From: an uncultured Candidatus Peribacteria bacterium
GTDB taxonomy: Bacteria; Patescibacteriota; Gracilibacteria; BD1-5; UBA6164
DNA length: 64,000 bases
NCBI GenBank assembly: GCA_964415565.1
Contig: CAYQAV010000131.1
Span: 291 to 64,290, forward strand
Reading direction: 5' to 3'
This document shows positions 8,079 to 19,548 of the stretch, in pieces; the stretch's first letter is position 1, and every line of letters begins with the position of its first letter. The translations under genes were made by a program, and so were the position numbers. The notes under the pieces were generated by a model, which was given only the letters and a program-made list of their open reading frames with translations, had not been told where the DNA came from and ran no database searches.

Positions 8079-10700
8079 ATGTTTGATATGGGTATTAAAG
8101 TTATTAAAACAAGAGATTGAGATTTGTTACACTTCGATAGAAGTAGAATAGAGAGAGTTATAGAAAAAGCAGCCGAAAGTGTATGAGAAAAAAACCTAGA
8201 TTTTGTAGATTTTATAACTGATAATGTAATTCAAGCATTAGAGTTAAAATTAGAAAAATTTGATAAATCTCAGTTTATAACTGTTGAAATGATTCAAGAC
8301 CAAGTAGAAAGAGAATTAATGGAATCTTGATATTTTCAAGTAATGAAACATTTTATTATCTACAGAAGTAAAAGAGCCGAAGCAAGAGAAAAAGCAAAAG
8401 AAAAAGTAGAAAAAAAATTATCTGAAAATACATTTAAAATTATTAAAACTACTTGAAAAAAAGAAAGTTTTGATATGGATAAAATAGAAAAAACTTATAA
8501 AATCGTAAGTTATTGATTAGCTAGAAAATGTAGATTTGAAGAAATAAGTGATAGTTTTAGAAAATATATCGTTGAATGAATGAAAACAAACGATATAACT
8601 AAGATGCTTATTAAATCAGCTATAGATTTGATTTCTATTGAAAATACTTCTTGGCAATTTATTGCTTGAAGATTGGCTTTAATTGATTTGTATAAAGAAG
8701 CTTCAAACAATAGAAAAATGGATATCAAAAAAATATATGAAGCAAAACATTATGCTGAATTATTTGATGAATATGTAAAATTATGATTATATTCTAAAAA
8801 TTTCTATAATTATTATACAAAAGAAGATATTTTAGAAGCAGGTAAATACTTGAAAAAAGATTATGATTTTGAATACAATTATACAACTATTTTGATGTAT
8901 AAAAAAAGATATCTTTTAAATCCAAATAAGAAAATAAAAGAATTACCTCAAGAAATGTATATGAGTATTGCTCTATTTTTAGCTATGCCTGAACCAAAGG
9001 AAAATAGATTAAAAATTGCAAAAAAGATATATGATTATTGTGCTACTGGTAAAATTTCTCTACCAACTCCAACTCTATTAAATGCTAGAACAAATTTTCA
9101 TCAATTATCTAGTTGTTTTAAATTTAATGTTGAAGATGATTTAAGAGCAATTTATCATTCTATTGAAAATATGGCACAAGTTTCTAAATTTTGAGGATGA
9201 ATTTGAGTTTATCTTTGAAATATTAGAAGTAGAGGGGCAAATATTAGATGAGTAAAAGGTGCTGCAGGTTGAGTTAATCCTTGGATTAAAGTTATAAATG
9301 ATACTGCAGTTGCAGTAAATCAATTGTGAGCTAGAGCTTGAGCAATAAGTGTAACTTTAGATGTTTTTCATAGAGATATATATAGTTTTCTTGATATTCA
9401 AACTGAAACTTGAGATATAAGAAATAAAAGTTTTGATGTATTTCCAGCGGTTTCATTTCCAGATTTATTTATGGAAAGAGTAGCAAATGATGAAAATTGG
9501 ACACTTTTTGATCCAAAAGAAGTAACTGATTTTACAGGTAAAAAATTACAAGATCACTTTTGAGCTGAATTTGAAGTTTTTTATTCTGAGTGTGAAAAAA
9601 ATGAAAAATTAGAATTAAAAGAAGTTATTTCTGCAAGAGATTTGTTTAAAAAATTTTTAAAAGCAACTGTTGAAACTGGTATGCCTTATGCATTTTTTAG
9701 AGATACAGTAAATAAAGCAAATCCAAATAAACATGCTTGAAATATATATTCAACTCAACTTTGTGTTGAAATATGTCAAAATACAAGTCCTTCTAAATTT
9801 ATAGAAGAAACAATTGAAGATGGAAAAATAATTATAAAATACGAGCCAGGAGATAGCGTAGTTTGTAACCTAGCATCAATAAATGTTGCAAAAGTTAATA
9901 CTCCTGACGATATCAAAAAAGTACTTCCAGTTGCTATGAGATTACTTGATAATGTAATTGATTTAAATTTCTATCCTATAAAAGAAGCTGAAAAAACTGC
10001 AAAAAAATATAGATCTGTTTGACTTGGATTTTTATGACTTGCTGAATATTTAGCTGTAAATAAATTGGCATACGATAGTAAAGAAGCAAGAACAGTTGTT
10101 GATGAATTATTTGAAAAATATGCATATCAAACTCTTAAATCTTCAAATGAATTAGCAACAGAAAGAGGAACTTATGAAGTTTATAAATGAAGTGAATGGT
10201 CTAAATGAATATTATTTCAAAAAGATGCTAATTGGTTTAGAAATAATTCAAAAATGAGTGCTGACTGGTTAGAATTAATAGAAAATATTAAAAAAACTTG
10301 AGTAAGATTTGCTTATCACTTAGCTCCAGCACCAAATACTTCTACTGCTTTAGTAGTTGGTACAACAGCTTCAATTTTACCTATTTATAAAAAATATTTT
10401 GTTGAAACAAATGCAATTGCACCAAGTGTAAATGTGGCACCAAACTTAGATGAAGAAAATTTTTGGTATTACAAAGAATATGTAAATATGAATATGAATG
10501 ATGTAATTGATATGGTTTCAGTTATATATAAATGGATAGATCAATCAATCTCATTTGAATGGATGATAAACCCTGCAAATGTTTCTCCAAAAGAGCTTTA
10601 TGAATACTATTTTAAAGCACATAGAGAATGAATTAAAACAGTTTATTATGTTAGATCTATGAGTCTTGAAGTAAAAGAATGTGTAAGTTGTAGTTGATAA
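8079..10700 (+). CDS. nrdA: class I ribonucleotide reductase alpha subunit with N-terminal ATP-cone (873 aa)
   Basis: ATP-cone VIKTRDGDLLHFDRSRIERVI. LPTPTLLNARTNFHQLSSCF. KFGGGIGVYLGNIRSRGANIRG with TGA at 9192, 9198, 9204. STQLCVEI. C-terminal CVSCSG. ATG at 8088 is an alternative start. Confidence 0.9.
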
Positions 10701-10741
10701 TAAAAATAGATATTTTATTTTTATTTTTAAATATATATATT

Positions 10742-11053
10742 ATGGAAAAATCTATAGAATTAAAAGAAAAAATACAACAAATCTATCAATTTGATTTATC
10801 TTCATGAAGTAGATTAGAGGATTATTTGTGAAATACTTTTTATGTATTATCACAGAGAGAATTTTTATTATGATGATGAAAAATTTCTATAGAAGATATT
10901 TTAATATTAGAGAATGAATATAAAAAAATAGTAGAAATAATTTTAAATTCACCAATTCAAAATTTAGTTGATAAATTAAATTCTAACAAACCATCTGAAA
11001 ATTGAACAAATCCAAATATAGAATCAATAAAAATAGCATTTTGAATTAATTAA
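10742..11053 (+). CDS. hypothetical protein (103 aa)
   Basis: ATG 10742 to TAA 11051, open with TGA=Gly: MEKSIELKEKIQQIYQFDLSSGSRLEDYLGNTFYVLSQREF. No family recognised. Confidence 0.45.
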
Positions 11054-11123: not shown

Positions 11124-11176
11124 AAAAACTACATATTGTATATAGTTAAATTAACTATATACAATATGTAGTTTTT
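11124..11176. terminator. perfect hairpin with 25-bp arms and 3-nt loop; terminator and/or operator
   Basis: aaaaactacatattgtatatagtta-aat-taactatatacaatatgtagttttt, with an A-run before and a T-run after. It ends 22 nt upstream of the nrdD ATG. Confidence 0.7.
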
Positions 11177-11198: not shown

Positions 11199-13403
11199 AT
11201 GTCTATATATAAAGTTAAAAAAAGAAATTGAGCAATAACAACTTTTGAACAAAAAAAGATTGAAGATGCTATAATAAAAGCAATAAAATCAGTTGGTTGA
11301 GATGATTTTACTCAAGTTATTTCTATTACTAATACAATAATTAGTTTAGTTGAAAAAAAGGTTTGAAAAAACATACCAACTGTTGAGCAAATTCAGGATG
11401 AGATAGAAGAAGTATTAATTAAGGAATGACATGATAGTGTAGCTAAAAGTTTTATACTTTATAGACAAAAAAGAAATGAATCTAGAACTGATAAAAATGT
11501 AGTTATAGAAGTAGGTAAATCTATGGAAGAATATTTAGAAAAATCAGATTGGAGAATAAATGCAAATGCAAATTCTGGTTATTCACTTTGAGGTATGATT
11601 TTAAACATTTCTTGAAAAGTAACTGCAAATTATTGGTTATCTCATATATATCCAGCTGAAATTTGAAACTTACATAGAAGTGCAGATTTTCATATTCATG
11701 ATTTAGATATGTTTTCAGGTTATTGTGCTGGTTGGAGTTTAAGGGCATTACTTGAAGAATGATTTAATGGTAGTGATAAGAGAGTTGATTCTTCACCTGC
11801 AAGAAATCTGCAAGCAGCAGTTAATCAAATGATAAATTTCTTATGAACTCTTCAAAATGAATGGGCTTGAGCACAAGCATTTTCAAGTTTTGATACTTAT
11901 CTTTCACCATTTATTCATAAATACAAAGAAGAAATAGAAAAAGAATTAAATGAAGTAAATGCTTCATTTAAAGATGAAAAAGAAAAAAAAGACTATATTT
12001 ATAATAAAACATATAAATATGTTTATCAACAAATGCAAAACTTTATTTTTGGTTTAAATGTACCAAGTAGATGGTGAACACAATCTCCGTTTACAAATAT
12101 AACTCTTGATTGGACTTGTCCAGAAGATTTAAAAGAAAAGGCATTATTCTTAGGTTGAATTGAAAAAGGATATTATAAGAAAAAATATTGAGAATTAGAA
12201 GAGGAAATGAAAATTATAAATAGAGCTTTAATTGAAGTTTATATTAAATGAGATAGAAATGGTAGAGTTTTTACTTTTCCAATCCCAACTTATAATATCA
12301 CTCCAGATTTTCCTTGGGAAGATCCTGATATAGATTTATTGTTTGAAATGACAGCTAAATATTGATTACCATATTTTCAAAATTTTGTAGGGTCACAATA
12401 TAAAAGAGTTAAAAAACCAGATTGAACTATAGAAAAAATTGAAAATCCAGATGCATATAAACCAGGTGCAGTTAGATCAATGTGTTGTAGATTACAACTT
12501 GATTTAACTCAATTAGAAAAAAGATGAGGTTGATTATTTTGAAGTGCGGAAATGACTTGAAGTATATGAGTTGTTACTTTAAATATGGCTCGTATATGAT
12601 ATAACTCGGCTTGAGATAGAGAAGCATTTAAAAATCAAGTAGTTTATCTTATGGAACAAGCAAAAATATCTCTTGAACTAAAAAGAAAAACAATTACAAA
12701 ATGGCTAGAACAATGACTTTATCCTTATACTTATAGATATTTAAGAAGTTTTAGAAATCATTTTTCAACTATTGGTTTAAATGGTATGAATGAAGCAATT
12801 TTAAATTTTACATCTTGAAAAGAAGATATTTCAAGTGATTGGTGAAAAGAATTCACTATGGAAGTAATTGATTTGATGAGAGAAAAACTAAAAGAATATC
12901 AAGAAGAAACTTGAAATATGTATAATCTAGAAGCAACTCCAGCAGAATGAACAACATATAGATTTGCAAAAGAAGATAAGAAACAATTACCAAATATAAT
13001 TCAAGCAGGGACTGAAGAAGCTCCTTATTATACAAATTCTTCTCAATTACCAGTTTGATTTACATCTGATCCATTTGAAGCACTTGATGAACAAAATGAA
13101 CTTCAATGTAAATATACATGAGGAACTGTATTACATTTATATATGTGAGAAAGATTAACAGATAGTAAATCTTGTAAGAACTTTGTTAGAAATGTGTTAA
13201 CAAATTATAGTTTGCCATATATAACTATTTCTCCAACTTTTTCTATTTGTCCTAAACATTGATATGTAAATTGAGAACATGATTTTTGTCCTAAATGTGA
13301 TGCTGAAGTATGATATAATTGAAAAAAATTTGATATAAAAACTAGGGAAATATATACAGATGATAGTGAAAAAATGAAAAAAATTGAAAATGAAGATGTT
13401 TAA
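11199..13403 (+). CDS. nrdD: anaerobic (class III) ribonucleoside-triphosphate reductase, large chain lacking the glycyl-radical domain (734 aa)
   Basis: ATP-cone VKKRNGAITTFEQKKIEDAI. DWRINANANSGYSLGGM, FHIHDLDMFSGYCAGWSL, QAFSSFDTYLSP. Zn-ribbon-like CPKHGYVNGEHDFCPKC. The ORF then ends (..TREIYTDDSEKMKKIENEDV, TAA at 13401) before any RVxGY glycyl-radical motif. Confidence 0.9.
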
Positions 13404-13496
13404 AAATTAAAAATCCACCATTTAATTTACTAATTTATTAAATAAATAAGCAATTTAAGTAGGGGTTATATTATAATTAATTAACCAAATAATATT

Positions 13497-13685
13497 ATGT
13501 CAGCAGTATTTATAAATAAAGAAGGTATGGAAGTTGAAAGAACTAGATGTGAAATCTATACTAGAGTTATGTGATACCATAGGCCAGTTACAAGTTTTAA
13601 TATTTGAAAAAAGAGTGAATTTTATTCTAGAAATTATTTTAAAGAGACAAATCAAAATTTAGATTTCATAAATAAGTATTGTTAA
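13497..13685 (+). CDS. stand-alone NrdD glycyl-radical domain (62 aa)
   Basis: MSAVFINKEGMEVERTRCEIYTRVMGYHRPVTSFNIGKKSEFYSRNYF... matches the NrdD C-terminal consensus (sRv.GY.rpv..wN.GK..E...R). The radical Gly is the TGA at 13572-13574. Confidence 0.7.
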
Positions 13686-13723: not shown

Positions 13724-14617
13724 ATGAAGAGAGCCGATATTAAAGTTTGATTTGCTTGTAATAATCATTGTACTTTTTGTGTTCAGTGAGATAAAAGATA
13801 CAAATATAAACCTAGAACTTTAGATGAAATAAAATCAATTATATTAAATGAATATAATTTATGAGCTAGATCTGTAGTTTTCACTTGATGAGAACCAACT
13901 GTTCATCCAAATTTAGTTGAAGCTGTTTCATATTCTAAAGAATTATGATTTATACAAATTCAAATTCAATCTAATTGAACAAATTTTGATGATATAGAAT
14001 ATATAAAAAAATTACTTAATGCATGAGTAACAGAATTTAGTCCTTCAATTCATTGATTTAAAAAAGAAACTCATGATAAGCAAGTTTGAACACCTTGAGC
14101 TTGGGATAGGGTTGTAAGATGATTAATTAATTTAAGAAAACTAAAATGTTTGGTTATTATTAATTCTGTAATTACAAATGATAATTATAAAGAAATTCCA
14201 TTACTTGCTAAGTTACTTATAGATTTAAAAGTAAATCAATTTCAATTTGCATTTGTTCATATATTATGAAGTGCAGATAAAAATAAAGAAAGTGTTGTTC
14301 CTAAAAAATCTATTGTTATACCATATGTTCATAAAGCACTTGATTTAGCAAAAAATGCTTGAATTCCTGCTTATACTGAAGCAATTCCTTATTGTTTAAT
14401 GCAATGATATGAATATGCAATTTCAGAAAATATAATGCCAGAAACTTCTATAAATGATGCAGAAATGAGAACTGAAAGTTATGCAGAATATAGATGGAAT
14501 GAATGAAAAACAAAAAGAGAAGAATGTAAGTCTTGTTCTAAATATGAACTTTGTGAATGACCGTGGAAAGAGTATCCTGATATGTATGGTTGGGATGAAT
14601 TTGTTCCTTTAAAATAA
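13724..14617 (+). CDS. radical SAM protein (MoaA/NifB/PqqE-like) with C-terminal Cys-rich motif (297 aa)
   Basis: CxxxCxxC cluster GFACNNHCTFC, GGEPT motif VVFTGGEPTVHP, C-terminal CKSCSKYELCEGPW. Confidence 0.8.
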
Positions 14618-14621
14618 AAAT

Positions 14622-15323
14622 ATGCAAATATCTGCAATAAATAAATTTTCTTTGATAGAGTTTCCATGAGAAATTTCTACCATAGTTTTTACTCCTGGTT
14701 GTAATTTTAGGTGTGAGTATTGTCATAATAGTGAGTTCGTATTACCAGAAAAACTGAAAAATGTTTTAAAAAATTTAATAATGGAAAAAGCATTTTTTAA
14801 TTTTTTGGAAAAAAGAAAATGAAATCTTACTTGAGTTTCAATTTGTGGCTGAGAGCCTACTATGCAAACTGATTTAAAAGAGTTTTGTAGAAAAGTTAAA
14901 TCACTTTGATATAAAGTTAAGCTTGATACAAATTGAAGAGATCCATTTATAATTAAAGAACTTTTAGATGAAGATTTGCTTGATTATGTTGCAATGGATA
15001 TAAAATATGAGATATGAAATTTTTCTTATATAGCATGAATTAAATTAGAAGAAAAGATATATTTAGAAACTATAAATATACTTTTAAATTCAACTATAGA
15101 TTATGAATTTAGAACTACAGTTATTAAGTGAATTCATAATGAAGAAATAATAGAAAATATATCAAAATATATTTCTGGAGCAAAGAATTATTACTTACAA
15201 AATTATAGGTCAGGAAATACTTTAAATCAAAATTTTAATTGAGAAAGTTTTAACCAAAATGAGCTAGAAAAATTTAGCGAAATCTCAAATAAATATATAA
15301 AAAATGTATGAATTAGAAACTAA
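14622..15323 (+). CDS. nrdG: anaerobic RNR activating radical-SAM enzyme (233 aa)
   Basis: FSLIEFPGEISTIVFTPGCNFRCEYCHN..GVSICGGEPTMQ..KLDTNG, the PflA/NrdG-type activase, downstream of nrdD. Confidence 0.85.
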
Positions 15324-15356
15324 AATATTACTTTTATAAAAGTAATATTTTAGTTA
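15319..15356 (+). terminator. intrinsic terminator after nrdG
   Basis: Inverted repeat taaaatattactttt / aaaagtaatatttta followed by T-rich sequence. Confidence 0.6.
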
Positions 15357-15380
15357 TTTTAATAATTAATTTACAAATAA

Positions 15381-16124
15381 ATGAAAATAAATAAAACAGA
15401 TATTATATGAGAAGTTGCATCAAAATATCCAATTACAGTAAGTGTTTTTTTGAAATATTGAATAGAATTTTGTTGTAAATGAAATATTACTTTAGAGGAA
15501 TCATCAAAAAGAGATAATTTTGATTTAGATTTAGTTTTATCTGAGTTATCTAAGCTTGTTGATTTTAATAATTCTGAAGATATAGATTTATCATCAAAAA
15601 CATTACCTGAAATAGCAGAGTATATTAAAAATACTTTTCATTTACCAATTAGAGAGCTTTTGTATCCAACAGAAGTTCTTGCTAAGAAAGTTGCAATGGT
15701 TCACTGAGAATCACATAAAGAATTATATGAAATTAGAGATATAGTAGAGGGATTAGTTCCTGTTTTAGAAATGCATTTTGATAAGGAATGACAAATTTTA
15801 CATCCAATGTTAAATGAGTTACAAAATAATTTTGATAATAATACTGAATTAAAACCATTACATTGTGGAAGTATAAAAAATCCTATAAGACAAATGGAAT
15901 CAGAACATGATAATTATGGAGATATGCTTTTAGAGTTAAAAAAATTAACATCAAATTATACTTTGCCAGATGGAGCATGTAGAAGTTATCAAGCTTTGTA
16001 TGCTAATTTACAAAAACTAGAAGAGGATTTAATGAGACATACAAATTTAGAAAACTTTATTTTACACCCTAGAGCAATAGAAATTGAAAATAAAATTTCA
16101 TGAAATAGTAGTTGTGGTTTTTAA
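15381..16124 (+). CDS. ric: iron-sulfur cluster repair di-iron protein (RIC/ScdA/YtfE family, 247 aa)
   Basis: ScdA_N-like N-terminus (VASKYPITVSVFLKYGIEFCCKGNITLEES) plus hemerythrin-like His/Glu pattern (HGESHKEL..HFDKEGQILHP..ESEHD..HTNLENFILHP). Confidence 0.8.
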
Positions 16125-16134
16125 ATAAAAATAT

Positions 16135-16842
16135 ATGATAGAAAAAAAATTAAATTTAATAACTTTTTCATGACCACCTTCTTCTTGAAAAACTTCAGTT
16201 ATAATTAAGGTAATTAAAAATTTTTTGCAAAAATGAATTAAAGTTTGAGTTGTAAAAATGGATTGTCTTATGACTGATGATGATAAATTATATGGAGAAT
16301 TAGGTATTCCTGTAAAAAAAGCATTATCTGCAAATATTTGTCCAGATCATTTTTTTGTTAGTAATATAGAAGAGATATTTAATTGGTGAAAAAAACAAGA
16401 TTTAGAAGTACTTATAACTGAAAGCGCATGACTTTGCAACAGATGTAGTCCTTATATAAAGGAAATAAAAGCAGTTTGTGTTATTGATAATTTAAGCTGA
16501 ATAAATACTCCAAAAAAGATAGGACCAATGTTAAAATTAGCGGATATAGTTATAGTTACTAAGTGAGATATAGTTTCACAAGCAGAAAGAGAGGTTTTTG
16601 TTTCTAGAATAAAAACTGTAAACCCAAAATCAATAGTAATGAATGTAAATTGATTAAATTGACAATGAGCCTATGAATTATCAAACTTATTGATGGAAAA
16701 TAAGGAAATGTATGAAACACTAGAATGAATGAGTCTTAGATTTTCTATGCCAACAGCAGTTTGTTCTTATTGTTTAGGAGAAACTCGTATATGAAAAAGA
16801 TTTCAAATGTGAAATGTAAAAAAAGTAAATTTAGATGATTAA
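16135..16842 (+). CDS. G3E-family P-loop GTPase, HypB/UreG-like (235 aa)
   Basis: P-loop FSGPPSSGKTS, ITESAGLCNRCSP (compare HypB ENVGNLVCP), VTKGD (NKxD-like), C-terminal CSYC. Confidence 0.65.
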
Positions 16843-16851
16843 CAATATATT

Positions 16852-17859
16852 ATGATAAATTATTTAGAATTTTTAGATAAAAAATTATGATTTTTGTTGT
16901 CTTCAATTCCTAAATTAAAAGAATATTTAGATACAAATTGAATTGATTATTTAGAAAAAGATGAATTAAGTTTAAAAGATTTTTTTAATAGCTTTTCTGA
17001 TAATTTTTATATAGAAAAAGCTACAACTAAGCAAATATTATCAAGTAGTTTTTATGAATTTTATATAAACCTAATTAAGCAAAATAGTAATAATTTACTA
17101 TTGGATATACATGAAATTACTATAAAATCGTGAAAAAACAAAAACTGAATAAATGAAAATTTTTCATCTTTAACAATTAAAAGGTGAGAGGTAATATCAA
17201 TTGTTTGACCTACTTGATCTTGAAAATCTAGATTACTTGCAGATATAGAATGGATGGCCTGCAAAGATACACCAACAGATAGAACTATATTTGTAAATGG
17301 AATACTTCCACCAAAAGAACTTAGATATTCTAGTGATTTTAAGTTAGTTGCACAATTAACTCAAAATATGAATTTTATTATGGATTTAACAGTAGAGGAT
17401 TTTTTAGTATTACATGCAGAAAGTAGAAATATTTCTGATGTTGAAAATACTGTAAAAAAAATAATAGAAGAAGCAAATAAATTATCTTGAGAATCTTTTG
17501 ATTGAAAAACATTTATTACATCTCTCAGTTGATGACAGTCAAGAGCATTAATGATTGCAGATATTGCTATTTTAAGTAAATCTCCCATAGTTTTAATTGA
17601 TGAGATTGAAAATGCATGAGTTGATAGAAAAAAAGCACTTAGTTTATTACTTAGAGAAGATAAAATAGTTTTGATAGCAACTCATGACCCTATATTAGCA
17701 TTGTCTTGAAATAAAAGAATAGTTTTAAAAGATGGTTGAATAAATAATATAATAGAAATAAAAGAGGAAGAAAAAGCAATATTATTAAAATTAGAGGAAT
17801 TAGATAAAAGTATTTTGTTTTATAGAGAAAAGCTTAGAAAGTGAGAAAAATTAATATAA
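16852..17859 (+). CDS. ABC-type ATPase with ~110-aa N-terminal extension, no adjacent permease (335 aa)
   Basis: Walker A GPTGSGKS (the three Gly are TGA at 17206, 17215, 17221), signature LSGGQ (TGA 17530, 17533), Walker B VLIDE, H-loop ATHD. Confidence 0.8.
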
Positions 17860-17885
17860 AAAACTATAAATTTTATAGTTTTTTA
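17858..17885 (+). terminator. intrinsic terminator after the ABC ATPase gene
   Basis: aaaactata..tatagtttt palindrome with A-run and T-run flanks. Confidence 0.55.
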
Positions 17886-17895
17886 TATTGCAATA

Positions 17896-17943
17896 TTACT
17901 ATATTTAGTATAATTGTTTTATATAAAACTCAATATATTGTAA
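17896..17943. promoter_or_regulatory. two candidate NrdR boxes (17896-17911 and 17928-17943)
   Basis: ttaCTATATTTAGtat and actCAATATATTGtaa. The second core matches the remembered NrdR-box core CwAtATaTwG exactly, the first 9/10. Centre-to-centre spacing is 32 bp, ending 12 nt upstream of the nrdR ATG. Confidence 0.4.
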
Positions 17944-17954
17944 TTTTAGAAAAT

Positions 17955-18398
17955 ATGTATTGTATAAATTGCTGACATGATAATACCAGAGTAACTGATT
18001 CAAGAACTTCTGAAGATTGAAAAGCAATAAGAAGAAGAAGAGAGTGTGAAAATTGTCATAATAGATTTACTACTTTTGAAAAAATTGAAACTACTGATTT
18101 GATAGTTGAAAAATCTTGAAACAGAAAGCAAAGGTATGATAGAGATAAATTGGAAGACAGTATTTTAAAGGCTGTTAATAAAAGAAATATAAGTATAAAT
18201 CAAATAAATGACTTAATAAGAAAGATGGAATTTAAATGGTGAAATAGAAATGAAATAACATCAAAAGAAATTTGAAAAAATGTTTTAGATTCTTTATTTT
18301 TACTCGATGAAGTTGCATATATCAGATATGCTTCAGTTCATTTAAATTTTGAAAATTCTAGAGATTTTATTGAATTTATAAATAAAAAAACATTTTAA
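17955..18398 (+). CDS. nrdR: transcriptional repressor NrdR (147 aa)
   Basis: [42 protein letters not shown] (Zn ribbon) followed by an ATP-cone. Confidence 0.95.
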
Positions 18399-18501: not shown

Positions 18502-19548
18502 ATGACAGAACAACAACTGAAAGCAAATCCAATTTTTAATCCAAAATGAAATGATGATGTTGCAGATAGAACAATAATAAAATGAAATACAACTGGTTTA
18601 TTTCAATTAAATGCAGTTAAGTATAATTGGGCAAAAAGTTTATATCAAGTTATGGTTTGAAATTTTTGGCTTCCAGAAAAAGTAAAATGACTTTGAGAAG
18701 ATGCTAATCAATTTAAAAAAGAATTAACTGCTGATGAAGCTAGAGCATATAAATGAATATTATCTTTTTTGATATTCTTGGATAGTATACAAACTATGAA
18801 TTTGCCAAATTTTTCTGAATATGTAACTGCTCCTGAAGTTAATCTTATACTTTCTATACAAACTTATCAAGAAGCAATTCACTCTCAATCTTATGCTACT
18901 ATTTTAGAAACAGTTGTTGATTCTAAGGATAGAGAAGAAATATACTATTTTTGGAGAAATGATAAGCATTTACTTGAAAGAAATGAATTTATCGGAGGTA
19001 TTTATCAAAAATTTATTGATAATCCAAATGATGAAAATTTCTTTGCTTGAATAATTTGAAATTTTTTACTTGAAAGTATTTATTTCTATAACTGATTTGC
19101 ATTTTTTGATACTCTTGCTGATGCATGAAAAATGGTTGCGACAGATAGAATGATAAATTATATTAGAAGAGATGAATTAACTCATGTTACTATTTTTGCT
19201 AATTTAATTAAAGAAATCAAAAAAGAATTTCCTGAAATGTATAGTGAAAAACTTATACTTGAAATGATGGATACAGCAGTTAAACAAGAAGTAAAATGGT
19301 CTAAACATATTCTTTGAGAAAAAATTATAGGTATGGGTCATGAAAATATAGAAAACTATACAAAATGGCTAGCTAATGAAAGATTAAATATGTTAGGTAT
19401 AAAACCACTTTATCCAGATGTAATAAAAAATCCATATAAACATCTTGATAGATTACAAGATAATAATGGTGAAAAATGAAATTTCTTTGAATCTACAGTT
19501 ACAAATTATGCACAATCAAGTGCTATGAAATGAAGTTGGGATTTCTAG
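18502..19548 (+). CDS. nrdB: class I ribonucleotide reductase beta subunit (348 aa)
   Basis: NWAKSLYQVMVGNFWLPEKV, LDSIQT, IQTYQEAIHSQSY, FYNGFAFF, IRRDELTHV. Di-iron/tyrosyl ligand pattern. Confidence 0.9.

Follow-up and report, generated by a model that had tools for sequence, protein, structure and literature searches.

Two separately gained or lost units in the nrd operon of a Gracilibacteria bacterium, one of them a candidate iron or Fe-S repair or delivery triad

We analyzed a 64,000-nucleotide stretch of a contig from an uncultured Candidatus Peribacteria bacterium (the window), in which the original prediction had placed five co-directional, tightly spaced genes between a split nrdD and nrdR/nrdB. 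Under genetic code 25 (TGA=Gly), the five co-directional open reading frames were recovered at exactly the predicted positions, with intergenic gaps of 4, 57, 10, and 9 nt in order; read with table 11, the same region broke into fragments. Classification with Pfam and TIGRFAM models upheld the predicted families, namely radical-SAM, nrdG, RIC, G3E GTPase, and ABC ATPase. The features of the locus are as follows.

11126-11174, no strand assigned: paired NrdR-box-like sites (11126-11141 and 11159-11174) in a perfect palindrome, just upstream of nrdD
11199-13403, + strand: nrdD, class III RNR catalytic chain (PF13597, E 6e-167)
13497-13685, + strand: 62-aa glycyl-radical peptide with RVMGY motif (NRDD model positions 532-562)
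13724-14617, + strand: radical-SAM enzyme of 297 aa, accessory unit 1 (PF04055, E 8e-28)
14622-15323, + strand: nrdG, class III RNR activase, backbone gene (TIGR02495, 187 bits; cut-off 131)
15319-15355, + strand: perfect AT-rich hairpin over the nrdG stop codon, upstream border of the triad (-17.5 kcal/mol, z -6.05)
15381-16124, + strand: RIC, YtfE/ScdA-type di-iron protein, unit 2 gene 1 (ScdA_N and Hemerythrin domains)
16135-16842, + strand: G3E GTPase, unit 2 gene 2 (PF02492, 41 bits; cut-off 20.7)
16852-17859, + strand: soluble ABC-type ATPase, unit 2 gene 3 (PF00005 at residues 106-251)
17852-17889, + strand: perfect AT-rich hairpin over the ABC ATPase stop codon, downstream border of the triad (-14.4 kcal/mol, z -5.56)
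17888-17943, + strand: conserved module before nrdR, TTGCAA-N15-TATAAT (17888-17914) with two NrdR-box-like sites
17955-18398, + strand: nrdR repressor, backbone gene (TIGR00244, 150 bits; cut-off 125)
18502-19548, + strand: nrdB, class I RNR di-iron subunit, backbone gene (from translation)

The flanks were also as predicted. The PF13597 match of nrdD ended at model position 529 of 562, so that the chain lacks its glycyl-radical tail; the 62-aa open reading frame follows, with nrdR and nrdB downstream. The identity of nrdB was taken from its position, its earlier description, and its conservation in every relative operon, not from a family-library match. The split NrdD with its glycyl-radical peptide was kept in G001-G006, G008-G010, G012, G014, and G019. 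The backbone nrdA-nrdD-glycyl-radical peptide-nrdG-nrdR-nrdB was conserved in relatives with neither extra unit. The proposed passengers are true extras in an nrd operon.

We compared the gene orders of the relatives. The order was radical-SAM-nrdG-(RIC-GTPase-ABC) in G000 and G004, nrdG-(triad)-radical-SAM in G003, and (triad)-radical-SAM-nrdG in G002. In G006 and L144, the radical-SAM gene and nrdG were present without the triad, and in G001, G009, and G010, nrdG stood alone. Since G006 carries the radical-SAM gene only and G001, G009, and G010 carry neither unit, the five genes are not the one module that had been proposed, and the radical-SAM gene and the triad are two units gained or lost separately. 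Of 7 genomes of the window's genus, 5 carried the triad, which was never broken up; in this genus, it was always part of the nrd operon, and its three arrangements all fell within the 2-kb nrdD-nrdR interval. The GTPase and ABC ATPase occurred in 5 of 41 relatives, all of the window's own genus, and the GTPase was matched in just 2 of the 401 genomes sampled across the phylum. G001 and G006 live without the triad.

This distribution largely refutes the reading that the four passengers form one dedicated system for class III RNR maturation, repair, or activation, in which the radical-SAM enzyme services the detached glycyl-radical peptide, and we regard it as improbable. The genes are indeed co-directional and tightly spaced from nrdD to nrdR, the triad of the genus never leaves the nrd operon, the radical-SAM gene is nrd-linked in three lineages with two arrangements, and the distant relative G035 has the order nrdD, peptide, RIC-like hemerythrin protein, nrdG. 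However, the two units come and go separately, the split-NrdD operons of G001, G009, and G010 lack both, and G008 combines a split NrdD with just distant radical-SAM relatives.

The radical-SAM enzyme itself points the same way. Its core contains CX3CX2C at C12/C16/C19 (CNNHCTFC) and its C-terminus a CKSCSKYELC motif; four C-terminal Cys residues (C224, C268, C271, and C277) are invariant and would bind one auxiliary cluster in a twitch-like manner. The best Foldseek matches of its predicted structure (AF2 pLDDT 95) were BlsE, SkfB, GDGT-MAS, and viperins, in a fold search that was undiscriminating (TM 0.6-0.69 to many radical-SAM enzymes). The best NCBIfam matches were HxsC4, HxsC, BlsE, and MoaA, by which the enzyme is judged not to be of the glycyl-radical activase type, a further point against a dedicated RNR system. 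The CX3CX2C core and the C-terminal auxiliary-cluster Cys are common to Twitch/SPASM-type radical-SAM enzymes (BlsE, SkfB, MoaA, BtrN; HxsC/HxsC4), among which BlsE, SkfB, and GDGT-MAS are closest by sequence and fold and HxsC4 is the top HMM. By contrast, the window enzyme fell far under every curated cut-off (HxsC4, 142 vs 500), has only four auxiliary Cys, and forms a separate Gracilibacteria orthologue group. It belongs to a Gracilibacteria-wide family that carries one auxiliary cluster and is repeatedly, but not obligatorily, nrd-linked: the linkage was seen in three lineages only, in two different arrangements, and close orthologues (65-78% identity) adjoin rsmF and miaB-like genes, tsaD, or A24-peptidase-like genes, which also counts against a dedicated RNR system. 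No match to the enzyme was found in G001 and G010, and just distant relatives in G008 and G009 (best E 2e-10 and 1e-24, respectively). Since all four genomes have a split NrdD without a close radical-SAM homologue, the suggested tie of the enzyme to the detached glycyl-radical peptide does not hold, and the split NrdD does not need the enzyme. More distant radical-SAM relatives were seen on the edges of arrays that comprise 3-8 radical-SAM paralogues.

We turned to the triad, whose first gene encodes RIC. The protein carries an FCC motif in its ScdA_N domain and a hemerythrin-like domain, scored 192 bits against TIGR03652 (slightly below the 204.7 cut-off), and gave a full-length alignment with the structures of YtfE and ScdA (E 1e-25). 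H87, H108, H132, E136, H176, H220, and E224 lined up with the YtfE di-iron ligands (PDB 5FNN); all seven aligned positions are thus His or Glu in the window RIC. It shares its two-domain layout, a ScdA_N domain that bears a Cys-Cys motif and a four-helix domain of hemerythrin-like type, with YtfE of E. coli and ScdA of S. aureus. The window RIC differs from YtfE in a 13-residue insert, and from characterized RICs in that its gene opens a fixed triad, completed by the genes for the G3E GTPase and the ABC ATPase, within an nrd operon. To our knowledge, no characterized RIC is encoded in such a setting.

In the GTPase, the motifs GPPSSGKT, ESAGLCNRCSP (C101/C104), and TKGD were accompanied by CPDH (C69/H72), C115, and CSYC (C210/C213), with six invariant Cys in total. 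It was 70-73% identical to proteins of Halanaerobium, Haloplasma, Fusobacteria, and Bacteroidales, and identity remained at 68-73% across Bacillota, Fusobacteriota, Mycoplasmatota, Bacteroidota, Spirochaetota, Aminicenantes, and Cloacimonadota; from these alignments, it is judged to be a distinct, extremely conserved G3E subfamily. The G3E P-loop GTPase fold and motifs are shared with the nickel metallochaperones HypB/HypA and UreG/UreE-F-D, and CPDH lines up with the CPH metal-site motif of UreG. However, the window GTPase is very distant from HypB (48 bits vs a cut-off of 121) and UreG (25 bits vs 204), reached E-values of only 7e-5 to 8e-4 against the PDB, has two additional invariant CxxC pairs, and has a DUF1858-domain protein and an ABC ATPase as partners. 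Neither the window nor the surveyed loci of the related cassette described below showed a hydrogenase or urease gene. The metal handled by the GTPase may be nickel, zinc, or another metal instead of iron.

The nucleotide-binding domain of the ABC ATPase (GPTGSGKS, LSGGQ, LIDE, ATHD) was closest to those of transporters (MJ0796/LolD-like, MacB, BceA, and EcfA), and the protein was 62% identical over 246 aa to its Halanaerobium counterpart. As predicted, it lacks a membrane partner: no permease gene was found anywhere in the nrd block, and the nrdA-to-nrdB interval of the window contains no membrane protein gene. The N-terminal extension of ~95-105 aa, earlier described as a 110-aa segment, is not anonymous: on profile comparison, it is a diverged DUF1858/ScdA_N-like domain (residues 1 to ~95). 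With hhalign, the RIC N-terminus matched the DUF1858 N-terminus of the SBP proteins considered below (probability 94.6%, E 7e-8), as did the ABC N-terminus (88.7%, E 3e-6), which also matched that of RIC (85.8%). Pfam DUF1858 was matched by 10 of 24 ABC N-termini; that of the window had no Pfam match, was 15-28% identical to the family, and showed weak DUF1858 similarity. By these profiles, a DUF1858/ScdA_N-like N-domain is common to RIC, the SBP protein, and the ABC ATPase. SufC, in SufBCD, provides a precedent for a permease-free ABC ATPase that powers conformational changes in a metal-cluster machine of the cytoplasm. The window ATPase differs from it in that no SufB- or SufD-like scaffold accompanies it, it bears a DUF1858-like N-domain, and the G3E GTPase is its obligate neighbor.

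The GTPase and ABC ATPase were also found in a cassette of many anaerobic phyla, made up of a DUF1858-SBP protein, the GTPase, and the ABC ATPase, to which a small Cys protein is often added. The window GTPase (70% identity) and ABC ATPase (62% across the nucleotide-binding domain; the N-domain is also homologous) are orthologues of the cassette core, with the same gene order and tight spacing. The order SBP-GTPase-ABC was seen in 75 of the 76 loci from other phyla, followed in ~40 of them by the small Cys protein, which faintly resembles the HypA zinc ribbon. Within 8 kb of the 76 cassette loci, we found hcp in 20, a Crp/Fnr regulator in 23, a NifU-like gene in 8, and nrdDG in 1. In other phyla, the pair therefore almost always occurs apart from nrd genes; its proposed dedication to nrd does not hold, and the triad is not RNR-specific by descent. 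In the window, RIC stands in place of the SBP-fold subunit, the small Cys protein is absent, the genome has no hcp, the triad lies within an nrd operon, and its lineage sits on a long branch. Neither an SBP homologue nor Hcp was found in the 7 genomes of the window's genus, in which RIC replaces the SBP-fold subunit. These findings bear on whether the ABC ATPase, with the GTPase as accessory, energizes a transporter encoded elsewhere, such as a metal importer, the soluble machine being an artifact of missing partners. The transporter-like nucleotide-binding domain and the SBP fold (PF13343) of the cassette partner would fit this, but no permease gene was listed beside the cassette in four annotated contexts or in the nrd block, the SBP proteins start with a DUF1858 domain of cytoplasmic type and have no signal peptide or lipobox, the ATPase has an additional soluble N-domain, and a cytoplasmic RIC stands in for the SBP protein in the genus. 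We consider a transporter role highly improbable.

Next, we examined the regulatory sites. The box centers upstream of nrdD lie 33 bp apart, each with a 9/10 core match, against a background of 0.42 such sites per kb, and the palindrome forms a hairpin of -29.5 kcal/mol (z -9.8). This region is probably an operator and the start of the transcription unit bearing the passengers. The NrdR-box-like sites before nrdR (17896-17911 and 17928-17943) are 32 bp apart, and the TTGCAA-N15-TATAAT module is unique in the window, with 0 expected by chance. The hairpin over the nrdG stop codon corresponds to the one that forms the nrdG terminator in triad-less species (G006 and G001 compared), but lacks the long U-tract. 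In G002 and G003, both sister species, the insertion borders carry a duplicated hairpin-plus-promoter module: its first half recurs before RIC, with one NrdR-box-like site retained, and gives the triad its own promoter-like element. These elements and the strong hairpins flanking the triad argue against the five genes as a single unit. In the window, no separate promoter was visible in the 25 nt between the nrdG hairpin and the RIC start. Given this and the position of the triad behind the nrdG hairpin, it is probably expressed by read-through from the NrdR-controlled nrdD promoter; the strong flanking hairpins count against this, and read-through is thus assumed.

The same borders could be read differently, the triad being a general nitrosative/oxidative-stress module with no RNR role that came to its nrd site by accident at a recombination-prone hairpin/promoter module. 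The bordering hairpins, the duplicated module that supplies a promoter-like element in G002 and G003, the company of hcp and Crp/Fnr regulators, not nrd, elsewhere, and the dispensability of the triad in G001 and G006 are compatible with this. On the other hand, its three distinct positions all fall inside the 2-kb nrdD-nrdR interval, the duplicated promoter copy retains an NrdR-box-like site, the window shows no separate promoter before RIC, and G035 placed a RIC-like protein in its nrdDG operon independently. We regard a purely general stress role as possible but rather unlikely.

Taken together, we favor, with about even confidence in the whole, a reading in which a conserved nrd operon under NrdR control gained two separate optional units, and the triad is a lineage-specific, horizontally acquired, long-resident variant of the membrane-free anaerobe cassette that would act as a soluble, nucleotide-driven engine for iron or Fe-S repair or delivery, locally tied to nrd expression. 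The Gracilibacteria clade has a branch length of 1.05 substitutions per site, and, as in host genes, most Gly codons are TGA in both the GTPase (14 of 18) and the ABC ATPase (16 of 18). The nrd location may reflect one insertion followed by local shuffling, that is, a single evolutionary event. In the proposed complex, a cargo protein, here RIC as iron donor and repair protein, would dock on the ABC ATPase through the DUF1858-like domains; closure of the ABC dimer, powered by ATP, together with GTP hydrolysis by the Cys/His-rich GTPase, would then drive the transfer of iron or an Fe-S fragment to damaged metal centers. The likeliest local clients would be NrdG and the neighboring radical-SAM enzyme, through their O2- and NO-labile [4Fe-4S] clusters, with the NrdB di-iron site as a possible further client. 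Of the dedicated class III cofactor or repair module first proposed, the metal-center repair suggested by RIC and the nrd location within the genus are retained, and the single module is not. Our literature search found no paper describing the DUF1858-SBP/GTPase/ABC ATPase cassette, and RIC as a partner provides a first functional clue to this widespread but unstudied system.

The window has a G+C content of ~23%, and its genes are fragmented when read under table 11. The frames opened once TGA was taken as a sense codon, and TGA fell at invariant glycines: the strings WPPSSWKT and WPTWSWKS became the P-loops GPPSSGKT and GPTGSGKS. The code is therefore that of table 25 (SR1/Gracilibacteria), and readings under tables 11 and 4 were ruled out by TGA at invariant glycines of the P-loops and of the RVMGY motif in the glycyl-radical tail. 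Many database entries for these Gracilibacteria proteins (P0009, P0014, P0179, P0211, P0217, and others) are translated with TGA as tryptophan (code 4) instead of glycine, a systematic annotation error that puts W into P-loops and other glycine positions. With code 25, all five genes of the original prediction, which lie within the ribonucleotide reductase (nrd) block, were borne out as ORFs at precisely the predicted coordinates, and HMM searches backed every label. The genes of the block 5' of nrdR are as follows.

8079-10700, class I RNR alpha subunit (nrdA), 5' of the passengers
10694-11053, 119-aa ORF between nrdA and nrdD
11199-13403, nrdD without the glycyl-radical tail
13497-13685, 62-aa ORF encoding the glycyl-radical tail (the peptide)
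13724-14617, radical-SAM enzyme (rSAM, P0001), 297 aa, code 25 ORF
14622-15323, nrdG (P0002), 233 aa, code 25 ORF
15381-16124, RIC (P0003), 247 aa, code 25 ORF
16135-16842, G3E GTPase (P0004), 235 aa, code 25 ORF
16852-17859, ABC ATPase (P0005), 335 aa, code 25 ORF

The last five ORFs are separated, in order, by 4, 57, 10, and 9 nt, and are followed on the 3' side by nrdR, nrdB, and a divergent trxB. NrdG scored 187.2 bits against TIGR02495 (NrdG2), above the equivalog cut-off of 131.15. The spacer between nrdD and the peptide (13404-13496 in the window, compared with loci L058, L056, and L057) ranges from ~30 to ~160 nt among species of the genus, which argues for two true ORFs and against an intron or a recoding site. 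The 119-aa ORF matched no family; it diverges quickly among species of the genus (37-57% identity), and no match to it was found in genomes G001, G009, and G010.

We mapped the window proteins onto the corresponding regions of the relatives' genomes. The conserved backbone is ruvA-rmuC-nrdA-nrdD-peptide-nrdG-nrdR-nrdB with trxB divergent, and it was free of passengers in three genomes, one of the same genus (G001) and two of other genera (G009 and G010). The block is thus a conserved backbone with two optional units, the rSAM gene and the RIC-GTPase-ABC triad. Four passenger states were found within the genus.

Passenger states of the nrd region in relatives
G000 and G004: rSAM-nrdG-[RIC-GTPase-ABC]
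G003: nrdG-[RIC-GTPase-ABC]-rSAM
G002 (and fragments of G005): [RIC-GTPase-ABC]-rSAM-nrdG
G006 and metagenome contig L144: rSAM-nrdG, triad absent

The three triad genes always occurred together in the genomes of the genus, and none of the seven carried the triad without rSAM. When the window (13724-17859) was compared with L056, L057, L058, and L059, the three full arrangements proved to be cyclic permutations of rSAM (X), nrdG (G), and the triad (T), namely XGT, GTX, and TXG, and one block move turns any of them into another. In sister species, duplicated copies of a module consisting of a hairpin and TTGCAA-N15-TATAAT lie at the block borders. The cyclic orders and the duplicated border modules suggest local duplication and deletion, or block transposition; no convincing direct repeats were found as insertion scars at the triad borders. 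The passengers had been proposed to form one dedicated module for the class III enzyme, but the backbone lacks both in G001, G009, and G010, and G006 has rSAM without the triad. Operon "passengers" can be independent mobile units instead of dedicated accessory factors, a lesson for annotation.

The GTPase and the ABC ATPase have counterparts far outside the nrd context. In the four contexts first inspected, a ~400-aa protein with DUF1858 and SBP_bac_6 domains (SBP protein) was followed by the GTPase and then by a ~338-aa ABC ATPase, with a ~80-aa ORF after the latter in three of the four and no nrd gene in any. A scan of species-representative genomes gave 548 relatives, and synteny was read on the best 76 loci outside Gracilibacteria. 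Of these 76, 75 keep the order SBP-GTPase-ABC, with a small Cys-rich protein next in about 40, and the phyla represented are Bacillota, Fusobacteriota, Mycoplasmatota, Bacteroidota, Spirochaetota, Aminicenantes, and Cloacimonadota. Within 8 kb, the neighbors were a Crp/Fnr-family regulator (23/76), hcp (20/76), a NifU-like gene (8/76, all Mycoplasmatota), and nrdD-nrdG (1/76). Such a distribution had been named beforehand as what would refute the proposed tie of the pair to nrd genes. The sole adjacency, in L099 (8001-12774, Vallitaleaceae), comprises a complete cassette of SBP, GTPase, ABC, and small protein with co-directional nrdD-nrdG directly after it, and was judged compatible with chance. 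In all eight Mycoplasmatota (Izemoplasma-type) loci (L070, L080, L089, L094, L104, L105, L112, and L120), the small NifU-like gene lies directly 5' of the cassette.

The window pair corresponds to the core of this cassette: its genes are adjacent and in the same order, its GTPase is 70-73% identical to homologues in Halanaerobium, Haloplasma, Ilyobacter, and Bacteroidales, and its ABC ATPase is 62% identical to the Halanaerobium counterpart over the nucleotide-binding domain. No tblastn match to the small Cys-rich protein (~80 aa) was found in the window, where nrdR directly follows the ABC ATPase. With ~70% identity over at least seven phyla, the pair is among the most conserved uncharacterized gene pairs of anaerobic bacteria. 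Literature searches on DUF1858, on GTPase/ABC/Hcp, on the HcpR regulon, on RIC with anaerobic RNR, and on Gracilibacteria with RNR found neither a description of the cassette nor a link between RIC and nrd. Four features are new here: RIC stands in for the SBP protein, the small Cys protein has been lost, hcp is absent, and the unit is embedded in an nrd operon.

G3E GTPases (HypB, UreG, MeaB, and CobW-type) use GTP to gate the transfer of a metal or cofactor. The window GTPase carries Walker A (GPPSSGKT), Walker B (ESAG), and specificity (TKGD) motifs and scored 41.2 bits against PF02492 (cobW/HypB/UreG; gathering threshold 20.7), which makes it a G3E member. It had been labeled HypB-like; the label is backed in that sense, but membership of HypB itself was rejected (TIGR00073, 48.2 bits versus a cut-off of 121.2), as was that of UreG (TIGR00101, 25 bits versus 204.2) and, on curated cut-offs, of MeaB or CobW. 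UreG and HypB structures gave weak matches (E 7e-5 to 8e-4). Database entries name the GTPase of this pair a Ni-binding hydrogenase/urease maturation factor or simply a GTP-binding protein. About half of its positions are invariant across the family, including CPDH (aligned with CPH of UreG), ESAGLCNRCSP, C115, and CSYC. Judged from these motifs and scores, the GTPase is HypB- or UreG-like in predicted mechanism only, a member of neither, and forms a subfamily of its own.

The ABC ATPase matched PF00005 (ABC_tran) at residues 106-251 (E 2e-14), and its GPTGSGKS, LSGGQ, LIDE, and ATHD motifs provide Walker A, the signature, Walker B with the catalytic glutamate, and the H-loop. No membrane protein is encoded in the nrdA-nrdB interval, and in the four loci with annotation no permease gene is listed beside the cassette. 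Soluble ABC ATPases, of which SufC is one, power conformational changes in the complexes that assemble clusters. The 95-residue N-terminal extension is conserved family-wide, and 10 of 24 family members matched Pfam DUF1858 unaided. No other part of the pair has diverged as far as the window's copy of this domain (15-28% identity), a pattern that fits co-adaptation to a new partner. Both proteins of the pair are members of known superfamilies and of no characterized subfamily.

The candidate for that partner is RIC, the gene for which lies directly 5' of the GTPase gene, in the slot held by the SBP protein in the cassette. Proteins of the RIC family repair damaged Fe-S clusters and can act as iron donors. 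The window protein has an N-terminal ScdA_N domain (PF04405, E 8e-15, residues 7-59) with the conserved Cys pair in the FCC motif at 30-32, and a hemerythrin-like domain (PF01814, E 2e-14), and its full length aligned with the experimental structures of YtfE and ScdA (E about 1e-25). H87, H108, H132, E136, H176, H220, and E224 aligned with what we take, from PDB 5FNN, to be the di-iron ligands of YtfE, and all seven are His or Glu. Against TIGR03652, the score of 192.1 bits was a marginal miss of the equivalog cut-off (204.7) with full-length coverage; the protein is a near-member of this known family. A homologue of the SBP protein was absent from all seven genomes of the genus, the window itself has no DUF1858 + SBP_bac_6 protein, and Hcp was not found in the seven genomes. 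On this evidence, RIC takes the place of the SBP-like subunit in this genus. Profile-profile comparisons aligned the ScdA_N domain of RIC with the DUF1858 of cassette SBP proteins (probability 94.6%, E 7e-8), the ABC extension with the same DUF1858 (88.7%, E 3e-6), and the ABC extension with the RIC N-domain (85.8%, E 5e-6). Homologous N-domains may explain how RIC could stand in for the SBP-like subunit.

The pair was restricted to the window's genus among 41 relatives, and of 401 genomes sampled across the phylum, just 2 gave a match to the GTPase. The second of these matches, L258 (G051:C6, 707-2166), is a divergent pair in reverse order, ABC then GTPase, with 49% (ABC) and 41-43% (GTPase) identity. 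In a concatenated GTPase and ABC tree, the Gracilibacteria clade fell outside all other sampled phyla on a long branch (1.05 substitutions per site), a position that does not place the donor of the triad. TGA makes up 14/18 (GTPase) and 16/18 (ABC ATPase) of the glycine codons, as in host genes. The long branch and the host-like use of TGA therefore indicate that the pair was gained by horizontal transfer, but not recently.

We also examined how the triad is embedded in nrd regulation. In all species examined, both nrdD and nrdR have NrdR-box-like sites on their 5' side, paired 32-33 bp apart (background 0.42/kb). This core-based paired-site analysis alone was informative, as the 16-mer NrdR consensus with 3 mismatches showed no enrichment (4 found versus 3.1 expected window-wide). 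Neither the AT-rich hairpins nor the N15-spaced module was picked up by a standard terminator/promoter scan. In the window, two perfect AT-rich hairpins flank the triad, each overlapping a stop codon.

15319-15355, hairpin at the upstream border, -17.5 kcal/mol, z -6
17852-17889, hairpin at the downstream border, -14.4 kcal/mol, z -5.6

The RIC start codon comes just 25 nt after the first hairpin, and this gap holds neither a box nor a promoter-like element. The homologous hairpin at nrdG in G006 and G001 precedes a U-tract and the nrdR module TTGCAA-N15-TATAAT, and in G002 and G003, a copy of the hairpin and module, with one NrdR-box-like site, precedes RIC. The triad of these sister species may therefore be its own transcription unit under a duplicated nrd-type promoter, whereas that of the window, with no visible promoter of its own, probably depends on read-through from nrdD. 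In G035, from another family of the same order (53% G+C), a gene for a 169-aa DnrN-like protein with the hemerythrin domain only (L255, G035:C10, 7461-7970) sits between the peptide gene and nrdG. This independent linkage of a RIC-like gene to nrdDG is further evidence that the local link is functional. Plausible clients of the triad would be NrdG and the neighboring rSAM, through their [4Fe-4S] clusters, and NrdB, through its di-iron site. The original prediction is partly supported: the theme of repair and the local nrd link are plausible, but there is no support for a dedicated class III module or for a tie between rSAM and the peptide.

The triad is a fixed set of RIC as the di-iron repair protein, a G3E GTPase rich in Cys and His, and a motif-complete ABC ATPase, with a DUF1858-like domain in two of the three. 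HypA/HypB, the urease accessory system (UreDEFG), and SufBCD are its nearest working analogies, and we rate it by analogy as a likely NTPase-driven metallochaperone system. The DUF1858-like domains would dock RIC onto the ABC ATPase, and ATP- and GTP-dependent steps would then drive the hand-over of iron, or a cluster fragment, to damaged centers. Since the cassette is linked to hcp and Crp/Fnr regulators in other phyla, its usual trigger is likely to be nitrosative stress. A broader and rather doubtful possibility is that DUF1858/ScdA_N is a docking handle that plugs interchangeable cargo, SBP-fold in most anaerobes and RIC here, into an engine of G3E GTPase and soluble ABC ATPase, an unrecognized class of cytoplasmic machine for metallocenter repair or delivery. 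If this docking reading is true, the exchange identifies the cargo chemistry as iron or Fe-S repair, the orphan N-domain of RIC/YtfE gains a first function, and the machine keeps radical-SAM and RNR cofactors alive in Gracilibacteria. The genus offers a natural domain-swap experiment, with an SBP-like partner exchanged for RIC, whose general role in repairing damaged Fe-S or iron centers is known; nucleotide-driven iron or Fe-S hand-over docked via DUF1858/ScdA_N thereby becomes testable. For Gracilibacteria, should the repair reading hold, a 1.3-Mb symbiont genome would guard the oxygen-sensitive cofactors of nucleotide reduction. The swap is useful as a clue from nature to an orphan machine of very high conservation, of which we infer everything mechanistic.

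The rSAM enzyme matched Radical_SAM (E 8e-28), and its 120 best homologues are all at least 62% identical, every named one being from Gracilibacteria or Altimarinota. Among 32 sequences, down to 41% identity, the CX3CX2C cysteines (C12, C16, and C19) and C224, C268, C271, and C277 are invariant; the four C-terminal cysteines indicate one predicted auxiliary cluster of the twitch/SPASM branch. HxsC4, although the best HMM, was rejected (141.9 versus a cut-off of 500), as was HxsC (97.9 versus 267.9). A role as glycyl-radical activase was also rejected, since no activase model was among the best 25 of the 66 NCBIfam families matched, whereas NrdG does match such models. The AF2 model (pLDDT 95) had BlsE, SkfB, GDGT-MAS, viperins, SuiB, DesII, and MoaA as PDB neighbors (TM 0.6-0.69), with no substrate class singled out. 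NrdD is split, with a separate peptide, in G001, G008, G009, and G010; G001 and G010 had no rSAM match, and the radical-SAM relatives in G008 and G009 were all distant (best E 2e-10 and 1e-24, respectively). The proposed service of rSAM to the detached peptide is therefore unsupported. Orthologues are nrd-linked in the genus, in the L150/L151 lineage (order as in G006), and in G019 (gene after nrdA), while others (65-78% identity) are flanked by an RsmF-type methyltransferase on one side and a MiaB-like enzyme on the other, or are found beside tsaD or by an A24-peptidase-like membrane protein. At least three changes are required on the orthologue tree to account for the nrd-linked state, and nrd linkage is recurrent and non-obligatory. 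We would guess, with little confidence, that this radical-SAM enzyme acts on a small molecule (nucleotide or nucleotide-sugar) and is also one of the clients of the repair triad. Relatives at a greater distance (45-59% identity) lie at the edge of arrays of three to eight paralogous radical-SAM genes. Such arrays (L062 in G012:C8; L154-L165, including L155 1-11300 and L159 6300-16500) occur in Gracilibacteria and other bacteria, including contigs of ~70% G+C, and often end in a gene of the P0001 type together with one for a polytopic membrane protein of the A24 (prepilin-peptidase-like) kind.
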